This document shows positions 17,953-31,152 of a DNA stretch of 64,000 nucleotides, piece by piece (within the stretch, counting starts at the first letter, position 1; each line of letters starts with the position of its first letter). The notes beneath the pieces were generated by a model. That model was not told the origin of the DNA. It searched no databases and worked only from the letters and a program-made list of their open reading frames with translations. The position numbers were made by a program, and so were the translations under genes. This stretch comes from Eledone cirrhosa (taxonomy: Eukaryota): NCBI GenBank assembly GCA_964016885.1, contig OZ024740.1, positions 147,560,001 through 147,624,000 of the forward strand. Direction: 5' to 3'.

Positions 17953-19972
17953 TAGAAAGGATGAATATAAAATGAAAGTGCTTTTTTTTAAAAAGGAATT
18001 TATTAGGTATTGACATATGTTTCTGTAACAGACTGAATACCTATGTATCGCTGCTTGCGTAATCATATAATGTTAGCAAGTATTCGATAGCAAATGTATA
18101 ATCAGTTGTCACTTCTTCAGAGATTTTGGATAAATTGGATAAAATCAGAAAAATTGAAGTATTTATATTAGTAAAAGAGGAAGAAACAGAGGGGATAGTA
18201 TATGACAGATGGTAAATTAATTTACTGCTAAACAAGTATATAATGGGTTTCTAATGAGAACCTTAAATATGTAAATACGAGTTCTAACCATCCACTCTCT
18301 ATAATTAAATCCATCCCTAGAAATGTTTCTCTTAGAATCTCCCGCCTGTCGTCCAACCAACAAACCTTCAAAGAACATGCCGAATATTATGATGATGCAC
18401 GAAGGAAAGCCGGTCACCTAGATAATATAGAGTATATAGTCAAAGATCACCAAAACACCCAAAATAAATCCCATAGGAGTAGAAATAGCACAGAATCACC
18501 ACCATACACACACTACCGCAATAGACACAATAATAGTCGCACACCACCAAACAGAAGGCGATGTAAAGAGTATATTTGGTACAATCCGGTCTATAACAAC
18601 TCTATTAAAACCAATCTACCCTCACAATTCTTTCGATTAGTTAAAAAACACTTTCCAACATCACATAAATATAATAAAATCTTAAACCCTAACAGTATTC
18701 GACTTTCATATTCAACCGCCCCTAATATTGAACAACATATAAAAAAGCTTAACGCAAAACGGTTGTATAAACGCCTTCCAACACATAACAATACACGTAA
18801 AACATTAGCTATAACATCACAAAACAACAAACAACATCCTGTCCTACATAAGCAACCACATCAACCCATCCATGGCAATACAACAACGCAAAATTATAAT
18901 TGCAACTGTGTCCAACCAGGAATGTGTCCGTTGAACAATCAGTGTCTTGAACGCAACATCGTATACAAATGTACTATCGAATCGGATAGACAGAAGTGGT
19001 ACTATGTGGGATCTACAGCCACCTCCTTCAAATCACGCCTTTATAGACATCGTTACTCGATAAAACATGAAAACCAGCGTTATGTAACAACACTCGCAGA
19101 CAAGGCTTGGCAGCTGCGTGAAAATAACCAACAATTTCACCTAAAATGGGATATAATAGCGGCTGCCCCCCATAGTCCCATGGACAGGAATTTTGTAAAT
19201 TATGTAATGTAGAATTATTTTGTATTATGAAATCCAAAAACATTTTATTAAATAACAGAATAGAGCGATCGTTATACTGTAACCATCGCTTAAAATCTAC
19301 ATTTTCATATTATAAATACTACCAGGATTGAACGCCTGTCTCTATCCCCGTTTGATTGTCAAAATAGATATTAACATTCTTTATTAGTCTTAATTCTATC
19401 AACTCTTCTATTATTTACCTTTTAATACAAACTGCTATAGATAAAGTGAGATTTCTGATTTCTTGATTCAATTCCCTAATGCATATACCAGCTGGCTACT
19501 AGCATTGATGTTATTTAGTAGCAATCGAAATCTCCCCCTTCCCCAATTGACACTTTATAATTAATACTACTGCACCAAATGACCAGCCCTGTCCACTGTC
19601 CAGTTGGTCAAGTAGAGATTAAAATTGGCACTCCCAAAATTCTTATTTAGATTTACTCATGGTATTCTCATTAGAAACCCATTATATACTTGTTTAGCAG
19701 TAAATTAATTTACTATCTGTCATATACTATCCCCTCTGTTTCTTCCTCTTTTACTAATATAAATACTTCAATTTTTCTGATTTTATCCAATTTATCCAAA
19801 ATCTCTGAAGAAGTGACAACTGATTATACATTTGCTATCGAATACTTGCTAACATTATATGATTACGCAAGCAGCGATACATAGGTATTCAGTCTGTTAC
19901 AGAAACATATGTCAATACCTAATAAATTCCTTTTTTAAAAAAAGCACTTTCATTTTATATTCATCCTTTCTA
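17953..19972 (+). mobile_element. 5'-truncated PLE (RT C-terminus plus GIY-YIG, ~18550-19330) bracketed by near-identical 308-bp inverted pLTRs (17953-18260 / 19665-19972)
   Basis: WYNP..IRLSYS..CNC..CPLNNQCLERNIVYKC..YYVGST..FKSRLYRH. The arms mirror each other and (TA)n lies on both sides. Confidence 0.9.
19790..19928 (+). ncRNA. Hammerhead motif with 90-nt stem II domain in the pLTR (mirror copy on minus strand at about 17997-18135)
   Basis: CUGAAGA-A-GUGACA..[90 nt]..UGUUAC-A-GAA-ACAUAUGU-C^. Proximal stem I pairing is weak. Confidence 0.55.
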
Positions 19973-20370
19973 CATTTTCTCCGGAATATAATTTATACTC
20001 GTTGAGCAAACCTGCACATACGCTGTTCATCTCTAACGTAACGATATATTATCACTACATTATTGATAACCTGAAATTTTATATATATATATATATATAT
20101 ATATATATATATATATATATATATATATATATATATATATATATATATATATGTATATATATATATATATATATATATATATATTATATGTATGTATGTA
20201 TGAATGTGGTGGTTTTGATTAAATATTGTAAAGCTCATGACAGATTATGTGTTGCACATTGATACTGGGAGATGTAGAGGGATATATATATATATATATA
20301 TATATATATATATATATATATATATATATATATACGATATTAAACAAATGGAAACTATATTTATAAAACC

Positions 20371-20447
20371 ATATTTATTTCATTATACATATTTCAGGGA
20401 TACCATATTAAAAATATGGCATGCCTTCTTCAGATAAAATACAATAT
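20371..20447 (-). ncRNA. Type I hammerhead motif within inverted repeat 20332-20418 / 20538-20626
   Basis: UAUUUUAU-CUGAAGA-AGGCAUGCCAUAUU UUU AAUAUGGUAUCCCU-GAA-AUAUGUAU-A^AUGAAAUA. Confidence 0.7.
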
Positions 20448-21450
20448 ATAAGCAGTTTTATAAATAAATTTGACGTACCATAAATATTGATCAACTTTTA
20501 TGTAAGAAGTTGGTTTGGTAGTGTATATTTTTGGTAGTATATTTTTAATATGGTATCCCTGAAATATGTATAATGAAATAAATATGGTTTTATAAATATA
20601 GTTTCCATTTGTTTAATATCGTATATCTACTCCAAAACTTGTTGAGTGCTTTATATCAGTTATAAAATATTTACTTGTTGTAACCCAACAATTTTAAATA
20701 AAACTTTTGCATATATATATATATATATATATATACATTTCTTCCTTCATAGATTTTATGTTCTAATTATACGGATTCGCTCTTGGATATATATCTTGAT
20801 ATTTATGGATCCTAGTGTCTACCCCAATAATAGCATTACCAGCATATTTATTTGTCTATTTCGCATTTTCCTATTTCGCAACCTTTTTATATTATTCCAA
20901 TAGGAGAGGAAATTGTATATCAATGTGTATATATGTGTCTTTGTGTTCATATGCATGAACACATACATATATATAAATATACACATGTATATACAAGTAT
21001 TCATATATCTATTTCTCCCTCCACTCGTACCCCCCCTCTCTCTCTCTCTCTCTCTATATATATATATATATATATATATGTGTGTGTGTGTGTGTGTATG
21101 CGTGAGTGTGTTGCATGTGTTAGTTACTCTGCGTATGTTTGTGAGAATATAAAAGTGACAAAACGAATGAATCTGGAATTGGCAATCACCGTCAAACATT
21201 GACTTCAAACAGTGTGACTGTCTAACTTTTATCACCCAATTTGAGAAATTATAGCCTCAGTACAACTATAAAATGAAATAAACAGCATATATTGTATATT
21301 TCTTCTCGTAACCACATGCTTCTTGTATCGTATACCAGCTGGGTTTAGATTTTGATATACGAGCCTATATATATATATATATATATATATATATATATAT
21401 ATATATATATATATATATATATATATATATATATATATATATATAATATA

Positions 21451-28800: not shown

Positions 28801-29309
28801 TGGAGACTTCTCTTCATAATTCCGAAATACTATAGCTATCTTATCCCCACCCCATGTATATATATATATATATATATATATATATATGTGTGTGTGTGTG
28901 TTGTAGGGTTGCAATTAAATGAGTCCGTGGGTGGTATGCCGTTTGAGCACTCGATGCCCGCGCATGTATATATATATATACACACACACATATATATATA
29001 CACATACATACACACATATATACACACACTCACACACACACACACACATATATATATATATATATATATATATATATATATATATATATACATATACATA
29101 CATATATACACACATAGATACATATACATACATATATACACACATAGATACAGATGCCTACATATACACTCATTTACTCATGCATACATCTCCATACATA
29201 CACACACGTATATATATATATGTATACACACATGCATATATATGCACACACACATACACATACATACACACGCGGATATACATACATATATATCTACACA
29301 CATACACAC

Positions 29310-30510
29310 ACACGTACATACGTACACATACATACGCTCTCTACCGTCTCTCTGAGTGTAATGTGGGTACCGCAAACATTCAAAACATAGGGTGAAAAAG
29401 AGTAGAGTGAAATAAAGTAAAATAATATAAGGTAAAATAAAAAATATAAAGTAAAATAAAAAATAAAAAATACAATATAATAAAATAAAATAAAATAGAA
29501 TACAGTAAGGAAAAATAAAATATAGTATATGCAACGATGTGAGGACACATCCTGAGGATGTCTGTCTGTGTGTGTGTGTCTGTGAGTTTGAATCGCTAAA
29601 TCTGAGAAGTACCCAACCGATTTTTTTCAAACTTTAAATGTGTATTACTTATGTTTCAGGGAATGTTATGCACATAAAATTCAACTTTTTGATCCCCAAG
29701 GCTCGAAGTAGGTGAAAAATTGCGTTTTTAAGCTTTTTAGGGTTTTTTTGAGGCGTTACGTCAGACCGATTTCCTTGAAATTGTAACTATGTGTTAGTCA
29801 GTCTCTTCTACATACGGTGAGCAAAGAAAATCCAACTTTTTTATGGCCTAGGGCCCGCATTAGGTGAAAAACTTTATTTTTTCAGCTGTTTAGAGCTTTT
29901 TGGAGGCGTAACGTCTAGCCGATTTTCCCTAAATTTCAAGGCATATTATGCACATAAAAAAATTTATTTTCTTGATCCCCTAGGGCCCGCATTAGGTGAA
30001 AACCTGCATTTTTCCTGCTTCATCGAGGAAAATCTTAAAGATTATCCAGCTATCAAAGTATTCGATTTATTTTCTTTACATATTGTCCAGGCATGCAATT
30101 TTTCCACGATTAGGTCTGTTGGCGGCTCGCGTTCCAAAATACCTTATCCCGTGCAACGCCGGGTACCACTGCTAGTTCTAAATAAAATACAATATATGCA
30201 ATATATCCCCTTGTTCGGGGATCGACACAAATATATAGAATGTGACATCATACCATTGCATATATTGTATTTTATTTAGAATGTGTTATACATCGTTGCA
30301 TATACCGTATTTTATTTTTCCTTACTGTATTCTATTTTTTTTATTTTATTGTATCTTTTATTTTTTATTTTTTATTTTACCTTATATTATTTTACTTTAT
30401 TTCACTCTACTCATTTTCACCCTATGTTTTAAATGTTTGCGGTACCCACATTATACTCAGAGAGACGGTAGAGTGCGTATATATGTGTGTGTATGTACGT
30501 GTGTGTGTAT
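29310..30510. repeat. Diverged inverted repeat whose left arm is split by a Helitron
   Basis: 29340-29540 plus 30176-30202 mirror 30254-30470. Confidence 0.8.
29553..30175 (+). mobile_element. Non-autonomous Helitron-like element (family of 39089-39630 and 54961-55542)
   Basis: GGATGTCTGTCTG 5' region; 3' CCCGTGCAACGCCGGG hairpin followed by CTAG|T. Confidence 0.8.
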
Positions 30511-30724
30511 GTGGGTGTGCATATATATGTATGTGTGTATACACACACACACACACACACACACACACACACACACACACACACACACACACACACACAC
30601 ACATATATATATATATATTATAGCTAAAATAGAAAAGAAAAAAACAAGAACGAAGCGAAGAGGCAGTACAAAGTGTTAATATTAGGTTCACGCTTGAGAG
30701 TGGGATATATATATATATATATAT

Positions 30725-31152
30725 ATAAAATATTAAAAAAATAATGAATAAAACAATGAAACAGTTCCTTATATTAAACAAAAAAAGTTCATTATTTAAC
30801 GATCGTTTCTAGGATATATATGTGTTAGAATTGGCATGCATATTCAACAGATCTATGTACAAAATTATACAAAATTATACAAACTATCAAGATTAAATAT
30901 ACATACCAAACACACATATATGCCGTCTTCAGAAATAATTATTTCTGAAGACGGCATATATGTGTGTTTGGTATGTATATTTAATCTTGATAGTTTGTAT
31001 AATTTTGTATAATTTTGTACATAGATCTGTTGAATATGCATGCCAATTCTAACACATATATATCCTAGAAACGATCGTTAAATAATGAACTTTTTTTGTT
31101 TAATATAAGGAACTGTTTCATTGTTTTATTCATTATTTTTTTAATATTTTAT
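30725..31152. repeat. Perfect 428-bp palindrome with no loop
   Basis: Centre TCTTCAGAAATAA|TTATTTCTGAAGA at 30938/30939; the arms mirror each other. Confidence 0.95.
30938..31086 (+). ncRNA. Hammerhead motif with 116-nt stem II domain (mirror copy on minus strand 30791-30939)
   Basis: AUUAUUU-CUGAAGA-C-GG..AUAUAUGUGU..ACACAUAUAU..CCU-A-GAA-ACGAUCGU-U^AAAUAAU. Confidence 0.7.

Follow-up and report, generated by a model that had tools for sequence, protein, structure and literature searches.

Type I hammerhead ribozyme motifs with greatly enlarged stem II in Penelope-like retroelements of Eledone cirrhosa

In this work, we present an analysis of a 64,000-nt stretch of the Eledone cirrhosa genome (contig OZ024740.1, positions 147,560,001 to 147,624,000 of the forward strand; the window), in which six sites carry the two halves of the hammerhead ribozyme core, CUGANGA and GAAA, separated by long spacers. 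Judged on sequence, these motifs are very probably type I hammerheads of retroelements. Three of the six families to which they belong, called A, B and C here, are ribozyme motifs in the pseudo-long terminal repeats (pLTRs) of Penelope-like retroelements (PLEs) of the Hydra clade; families D, E and F are PLE-like by layout and likely lie at PLE ends as well. The spacers of A, B and C each fold as a single irregular hairpin, a stem II rod, which presents a conserved internal loop. We give the proposal that this long rod docks a protein an even chance. A first-pass annotation of the window had recognised the motif, without its context at PLE ends, and had further proposed a discrete structural subclass with an insert forming a separate domain; the motif stood, whereas the spacer turned out to be one long hairpin and its length part of a continuum.

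Hammerhead motifs in the window and in the genome

The spacer lengths and coordinates of the first-pass annotation are exact (Table 1), and the closing helices quoted there are present in the sequence. At 6/6 sites the core and GAAA stand in the right order, four sites lying on the minus strand (cores at 3793, 23009, 40438 and 63351) and the family D core containing one extra base. We used a full type I descriptor composed of a stem I of at least 4 bp, the core, GAAA, a stem III of 2 bp with a 4-nt loop, and an NUH triplet. It found six long-spacer matches in the window, compared with 0.06 on average and 3 at most in 200 block shuffles; these are five of the named sites and the inverted twin of family C at 30932 (minus strand). 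By this descriptor five of the six sites have the complete type I hammerhead fold, with 4-7 bp of stem I in families A, C, D, E and F, and for them the description as hammerhead-type motifs with a greatly enlarged stem II is correct. It goes too far for family B (19805), where stem I amounts to 1 bp with a pairing probability of 0.00, identically in 40/40 copies; because stem I is not formed, we do not file this family as a functional hammerhead. Family B with a pairing 5' strand gave only two genome matches, both at rearrangement junctions.

The A15.1-U16.1 pair, the two pairs of stem III and the NUH triplet (GUA, GUC, GUC, GUU, GUA and AUC) are in place. Stem III is self-complementary, being a perfect palindrome in A (ACACGUGU), B, C and D and including G-U pairs in E and F, with predicted self-duplex energies from -2.2 to -10.3 kcal/mol across the window families. 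Cleavage is predicted after the C at 22900 in family A and after the U at 31079 in family C. Spacer folding gave z-scores of -4.8 for A (91 nt), -4.1 for B (90 nt), -7.4 for C (116 nt) and -2.5 for E (46 nt), the last hairpin having a C-C mismatch after 3 bp. The values for D (61 nt, +0.4) and F (45 nt, 0.0) come from window copies that are decayed members of older families, and these spacers fold no better than shuffles. Helix II closing at the core is predicted, and the two-sided changes looked for in the closing helices are present; it is weak in the decayed window copies of D and F.

A copy search of the 3.0-Gb genome returned first-look candidates for each family, of which 40 were scored. 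It gave 810 candidates for family A (40/40 scored copies 100% identical over 151 nt), 706 for B (40/40 identical), 520 for C (full-length matches 98-100% identical), 2,134 for D (mostly 95-97%), 1,701 for E (90-93%) and 196 for F (84-90%). Exact matches of family A numbered 1,955 and 2,055 genome-wide for two patterns. In all six families the core and GAAA halves, whose joint occurrence the earlier annotation had proposed to check, co-occur across the copies.

Genome-wide counts were obtained with the pattern CTGAWGA-gap-GAAACVNNBGTH, which covers one stem III type, the reversed pattern serving as control. With spacers of 40-129 nt we counted 33,959 core/GAAA pairs vs 1,259 in the control, divided by gap into 7,652 (40-69 nt), 14,481 (70-99 nt) and 11,826 (100-129 nt), the control giving 502, 463 and 294, respectively. 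Judged on the first 100 of them, most of the 11,826 longest matches are family C. In 1,079,998 unselected bases there were 26, 11 and 19 matches at spacers of 8-14, 15-24 and 25-39 nt, and 13, 3, 2 and 2 at 40-59, 60-89, 90-129 and 130-200 nt, with 0-0.6 per length bin in 8 shuffles. Matches occur in every length bin, and spacer length is therefore a continuum, in which stem II extends from 12 to 126 nt. Among the first 30 pattern matches of each gap bin (n=90, near-copies included), a stem I of at least 4 bp, which the pattern does not require, was found in 65/90, compared with 889/7,694 (11.6%) with swapped flanks; stem III was palindromic in 76/90 and the folding z-score was below -2 in 64/90. 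A chance origin is ruled out by the window shuffles, the scan of unselected sequence, the reversed-pattern control and these additional features. By pattern, hammerhead motifs number tens of thousands in this genome, many of them at the ends of Penelope-type elements.

Such sites are overlooked by routine annotation, as had been suspected. Among 150 of the 340 Rfam matches in the window, the sole hammerhead, at 38124-38168, has a short stem and stays under the gathering score, and Rfam on 20 further long-stem loci gave one weak hammerhead match (19.5 bits); the published PLE descriptor is too short. Since both cap stem II, hammerhead counts in animal genomes can fall short by tens of thousands per genome. 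Rfam matches to microRNA families at 30899-30978, also below the gathering score, come from the palindromic family C doublet and were discarded.

Penelope-like elements carrying the motifs

The proteins of A and B contain ADKT, the reverse transcriptase (RT) motif YRDD and a C-terminal endonuclease in one open reading frame (ORF). The protein adjoining a family C ribozyme (locus L329) contains SDKT, and all three families have the CxCX5C linker. As the clade is described, Hydra elements are defined by the change of DKG to DKT, CxCX5C and (TA)n targeting (bioRxiv 10.1101/2021.04.23.441226), and on these protein motifs and this definition an assignment to the Neptune clade was dropped in favour of Hydra. 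A, B and C elements are inserted in (TA)n, have tandem or inverted pLTR layouts and carry a tail. Pfam found no RT or GIY-YIG domain in 4/4 proteins, and a profile search with the element proteins gave 70 relatives, one of them named, from Hydra vulgaris, with 32% identity. Six long-stem families, namely A, B, C and three more, lie 423-968 nt behind a Hydra-type endonuclease; one family C copy lies about 1,300 nt behind, and one further Hydra family has a 36-nt stem. In an unrooted tree of 35 rows, from which L261 and L235 were left out as too short, a single branch (96/88) separates the six long-stem proteins from the other rows. From the ribozyme motif it is about 40-70 nt to the end of the element, and about 210 nt to the start codon in the following tandem unit.

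The family A element of the window comprises the endonuclease C-terminus, a 3' untranslated region (UTR)/pLTR of about 890 nt and the ribozyme about 40 nt from the end. A tandem unit of 3,564 nt was found in locus L131, in the order ribozyme, about 210 nt of 5' UTR, start codon, ORF, 3' UTR and ribozyme. In family A the sequence AAUAAA (22894-22899, minus strand) forms the 3' strand of stem I, so that folding could mask this poly(A) hexamer. A hexamer lies at most 45 nt 3' of the cut site in 32 of the 90 pattern matches (13, 19 and 0 of 30 per bin); it is common without being a general feature.

The family B element consists of an inverted partial copy, the endonuclease region, a 476-nt 3' UTR, the ribozyme and a 108-nt tail, with an inverted ribozyme twin at 18012-18120 (minus strand, core at 18120). 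Its post-cut stem I strand (19914-19921) is perfectly complementary over 8 nt to 19882-19889 in its own stem II, a pairing that differs from the predicted lowest-energy fold.

Family C occurs in the window as a doublet, with the twin ribozyme at 30791-30939 (minus strand) and a 135-nt tail on the right arm, and its relatives L327 and L348 lie 705-730 nt 3' of a Hydra-type endonuclease. Twelve of 30 family C copies (L325-L354, L299, L300) start exactly at the 5' strand of stem I, and longer copies mostly have CCAAT-like, AT-rich and initiator-like words directly upstream, which suggests a transcription start at the family C ribozyme. A start at stem I fits family A weakly, 12 of the first 100 matches being without the upstream 20 nt. 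Families D, E and F share a fixed 3' end, (TA)n, tails and inverted partial copies.

Table 1. Hammerhead motifs, internal loops and elements in the window (PLE, Penelope-like element; pLTR, pseudo-long terminal repeat).
Feature	Position	Strand	Description
Family F motif	3726..3797	-	4-bp stem I, 45-nt hairpin (spacer 3742-3786), GUA triplet; decayed, old family; without internal loop
Family B element	17954..20079	+	Hydra-clade PLE; protein P0001; (TA)n on both sides
Family B motif	19805..19913	+	CUGAAGA, 90-nt stem II rod (19812-19901), GAAA, palindromic stem III, GUC
Family B internal loop	19840-19844 with 19872-19875	+	second, weaker copy 19829-19833 with 19882-19885
Intermediate-length member	20376..20441	-	same layout, 31-nt stem II hairpin, 8-bp stem I
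Family A element	22857..24076	-	5'-truncated Hydra-clade PLE, in (TA)n
Family A motif	22895..23014	-	5-bp stem I, CUGAUGA at 23009, 91-nt stem II rod (23002-22912), GAAA
Family A internal loop (twice)	22984-22980 with 22931-22928; 22972-22968 with 22943-22940	-	
Family C doublet	30726..31286	.	head-to-head palindrome of pLTR ends, in (TA)n
Family C motif	30938..31086	+	7-bp stem I, CUGAAGA, 116-nt stem II rod (30952-31067), GAAA, stem III ACGAUCGU
Family C internal loop	30991-30995 with 31022-31025	+	
Family D motif	40353..40443	-	5-bp stem I, 8-nt core CUGAAAGA, 61-nt spacer (40370-40430), stem III ACAAUUGU
Family E motif	63282..63356	-	5-bp stem I, CUGAUGA, 46-nt hairpin (spacer 63299-63344), AUC triplet; without internal loop

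The stem II rod, its internal loop and their possible role

In the C series (27 sequences) 88.8% of cells pair, and 26 cells show two-sided change compared with 11.7 when shuffled (0/500). A series with 47-59-nt stems (24 sequences, outside the six sites) has two-sided change in 4/10 pairs (5/500). Single sequences of the A/B superfamily fold mostly as rods; RNAalifold run on the 47-59-nt-series alignment (A2) left the core mispaired.

An alignment of the A/B superfamily contains a nearly invariant AG 15-17 nt before GAAA, which belongs to an internal loop formed by 5'-N-A-D-U-3' with 5'-A-G-N'-3', in which a closing pair is followed by an A opposite a G, then a variable base, then a U-A pair. 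The loop was first spotted by eye and then tested on clusters with spacers of at least 55 nt: it is present in 19/37, compared with 1/37 of the reverse complements and 4/37 of the reversed sequences, and other loop types reached a mean of 1.4 and a maximum of 7 clusters in the same test. Among 40 hand-picked representatives, 27 contain 35 instances in all. Their A, U and A-G are fixed while the flanking pairs covary, the closing pair being G-C in 14, U-A in 14, C-G in 4 and G-U in 3 instances; the variable base is U in 16, G in 11, A in 8 and C in none. As C is the only base able to pair with the loop G in Watson-Crick manner, its avoidance suggests that the A-G contact is under selection. The distance from the loop to GAAA varies from 12 to 43 nt, too much for one fixed contact with the core. 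By a strict test the loop occurs twice in A, once in B, once in C and once in L072, a relative of family D; the decayed window copy of D has lost it. Families that share the loop have endonucleases only 32-37% identical.

From these features we propose that stem II grew into a long rod on which the internal loop would serve for docking, the most likely partner being the RT-endonuclease of the element itself. The ribozymes are predicted to cut slowly and as dimers only, two copies pairing through stem III into an active dimer, as in other PLE hammerheads. A protein bound at the internal loop would aid folding of the RNA or hold it for reverse transcription, so that cutting would be gated by the life cycle of the element. 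Genomic copies keep 40-70 nt past the cut site and optional tails, from which we infer that the templates were uncut. The rod would keep its docking role where cutting is lost, as in family B; this family is young and has kept rod and loop without stem I, which supports a role apart from cutting. A bolder version, which we find unlikely, is that within one PLE lineage stem II became a protein-gated switch rod outliving catalysis, with host A-to-I editing reaching the core and turning cutting off. If true, a ribozyme switch under protein gating would exist naturally in tens of thousands of copies, equipped with an A-G/bulge motif dedicated to docking. In synthetic aptazymes ligand domains are grafted onto stem II, and such a switch would be a useful, natural, protein-responsive counterpart to them.

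Several results weigh against protein docking by a rod on PLE hammerheads. The loop is absent from E, F and the window copy of D, from 10 more of the 40 representatives and from 20/22 clusters with spacers shorter than 55 nt, and since clusters share ancestry its instances are not independent. Pairs with two-sided change in the C series (9/47) were not significant (57/500), and the RNAalifold consensus for the 29-sequence A/B superfamily alignment has 0 pairs. In the longest gap bin the closing-helix measure was 0/30; the reason is that in family C a bulge follows the first 2 bp. In monomer folds of A, C and D stem I has a probability of only 0.01-0.12, and the dimer-ready fold costs 3-4.5 kcal/mol. 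Finally, no convincing linked PLE ORF was found for D, E or F at 20 loci each.

Alternatively, the internal loop might take the place of the loop I-loop II interaction by an RNA-RNA tertiary contact, made inside a single ribozyme or between the partners of a dimer, and speed cutting without protein. Natural hammerheads, as far as described in PMC3088659, depend on a contact between stems I and II, for which the terminal loop lies here too far from the core; the internal loop is thus a candidate, and 20/35 of its instances lie 12-19 nt from GAAA. We nevertheless see such a contact as a minority possibility, as the sole loop copy of the C series is 38-43 nt from GAAA, in family B the loop persists where no stem I exists for it to touch, and the stem I flanks have no conserved partner sequence in common. 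About as doubtful, and somewhat below the tertiary contact, is the idea that stem II simply tolerates growth by local duplications, so that any stable rod serves and the loop is a functionless inherited remnant. The 12-126-nt continuum would fit it, as would the 10-nt tandem duplication at the tip of the family C rod, the 42-nt family C relative L375 that is without the whole distal part, and the several long families without the loop; the protein tree is also compatible with a single origin. It is opposed by the fixed A, U and A-G, the covarying flanks and the absence of C at the bulge in 35/35 instances, by the sharing of the loop between families with such diverged endonucleases, and by its presence twice in the A/B superfamily.

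Two further readings, both improbable in our estimation, concern processing of the RNA. The conserved AG could be the 3' splice site of an intron in the PLE 5' UTR, splicing then remodelling or removing the ribozyme; in family A, removal of 67 nt from GT to AG would leave a 9-bp stem with a tetraloop. GAG is a poor splice acceptor, and this is the context in family D and the 51-62-nt series, where the -3 base and the base paired to it covary; the family B rod is moreover without a GT donor. In favour are the near invariance of the AG at 15-17 nt before GAAA in the A/B superfamily alignment, donor-like words in A and C, and the end of an intron that maps to the ribozyme in Penelope of Drosophila virilis, as reported in PMC4209133. 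The read data consisted of assembled contigs, with no run recorded as RNA; no splice-type joint was seen in those covering A or C, and as contigs show presence only, an intron is not excluded by them. Slightly less probable still, the rod may have evolved as a substrate of host A-to-I editing, changes at core adenosines switching the ribozyme off. At position 15.1, an inosine prevents cleavage at an NUH site. In run X4 (88 million letters of contigs, of a library type not on record and from another sample than X1), the sense strand of family C has A>G at 30984 (41%), 31046 (34%), 31067 (18%) and the core A15.1 at 31071 (21% of depth, 33 contigs), vs 0-0.004% at the same four positions in X1. 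This pattern looks like A-to-I editing; however, the two runs represent different samples. An inverted copy lies just upstream in 10/30 family C copies and alone would be enough for long double-stranded RNA, and T>C changes outside the family C rod, together with A>G on the antisense strand in 21/36 differences of family A contigs, point to general editing of repeats. A higher X4 depth 3' of the family C cut site was set aside, since contig depth cannot rank parts.

Other motifs and comparison with known systems

Further hammerhead motifs with 13-31-nt spacers were noticed in the window at 4314(+), 20433(-), 38162(-), 42753(+), 44172(-), 32707(-) and 33066(+), the last two belonging to a 14-nt-stem family that recurs elsewhere at 420-890-nt spacing, in the manner of a retrozyme. 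At 32142 (+) there is a decayed member of the 51-62-nt series, with core and internal-loop strands visible and GAAA gone. Positions 24950-27830 (+) hold a decayed Penelope-like element of another type, whose reading frame contains an SNKG motif and whose end resembles an endonuclease; behind it, at about 27783-27820 (+), comes a minimal hammerhead of the classic short-stem kind in which CAGACGA replaces CUGANGA. The window also encodes a rhodopsin-family G protein-coupled receptor of 372 residues in a single frame (5645-6763, minus strand; Pfam 7tm_1, E 8e-23) and contains fragments of a retrotransposon of long interspersed element type with endonuclease and RT domains (47400-52452, +). Outside it, a cluster of intact 1,217-residue RT ORFs with ADKT belongs to another Penelope-like family (L205-L207, G000:C6:30.04-30.07 Mb). 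A 93-97-nt family (L295, L323, L402) has a stem II predicted to branch into a three-way junction and no internal loop. Families with 47-59-nt stems (L145-L148, L182, L273-L294, L355-L373) have CCAUGG or CUAAUUAG as stem III, and the inner loop conserved in them is another one, in which CUC faces AAA; some recur at 520-680-nt spacing, and they are candidates for long-stem retrozymes.

The closest known relatives are the hammerheads of the Hydra clade described by Craig et al. 2021 (PMC8557442), in which, likewise, the type I core lies in the pLTR close to where the element ends, stem III is short and palindromic, (TA)n serves as target, and the proteins have DKT and CxCX5C. In all 26 Hydra rows of File S2 of that paper, one octopus family included, core and GAAA are separated by no more than 26 nt, whereas the ORF-linked families here have 79-126 nt and the conserved internal loop. 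Long stems as a general Hydra feature were rejected: in 77 metagenome loci of related elements there were 36 matches with 10-25-nt spacers, and the 5 long matches were unlike pLTR ribozymes. The minimal PLE hammerheads of Cervera and de la Pena 2014 (PMC4209133) share the pLTR, the mostly solitary or inverted copies and the palindromic stem III. Their helix II is called larger than usual there, yet has 7-8 bp, and the spacers of 45-116 nt lie outside the descriptor of that paper (helix II of 3-7 bp with a 3-10-nt loop); the G10.1-C11.1 pair, conserved according to it, is often replaced in our families. In viral hammerheads a 'long helix II' denotes 6-8 bp (PMC13725137). Non-LTR retrozymes (PMC7229834; bioRxiv 10.64898/2026.07.22.740005), as described, are also animal repeats related to pLTRs with type I hammerheads, and some families here with 48-50-nt stems recur, like them, at about 520-680-nt spacing. 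We rejected a retrozyme identity for the six named sites. Unlike retrozymes, they are dispersed or inverted and have no short helix II of the canonical kind, and the 3,564-nt coding element is the sole tandem unit seen.

In the literature consulted we found no animal hammerhead with an 80-126-nt stem II, nor the loop, and earlier papers may hold long-stem examples. Selaginella PLE-X1, in File S2 of PMC8557442, has type I motifs with a stem II of about 48 and about 54 nt, marked there as deviating, and is a partial precedent for the 45-61-nt sites. It differs in being an endonuclease-less plant element, present in two rows, with half the length of A-C and no inner motif listed in that file. For the long stem II there is thus far a partial precedent up to about 54 nt.

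With respect to function, PLE hammerheads with palindromic stem III are reported as inactive monomers and weak dimers (PMC4209133). A further comparison is with Poseidon PAc of the lizard Anolis (Frangieh et al. 2024, PMC11167929), in which the pLTR ribozyme also lies 5' of internal reverse-transcription starts and the tail is optional. By that account, cutting by its hammerhead requires the protein of the element, insertion in vitro can proceed without the hammerhead, and reverse transcription starts downstream on uncut RNA. PAc belongs to another PLE clade, the description consulted includes no long rod, and its ORF starts inside stem II, with the cut 26 nt after the start codon. On their own PLE hammerheads cut poorly, the single reconstituted case needs protein, and insertion in vitro can do without them; for the question of their role, the families presented here offer a direct test system, in which the loop is conserved and can be mutated, young copies are identical, ORFs are near-intact and one natural family has lost stem I.

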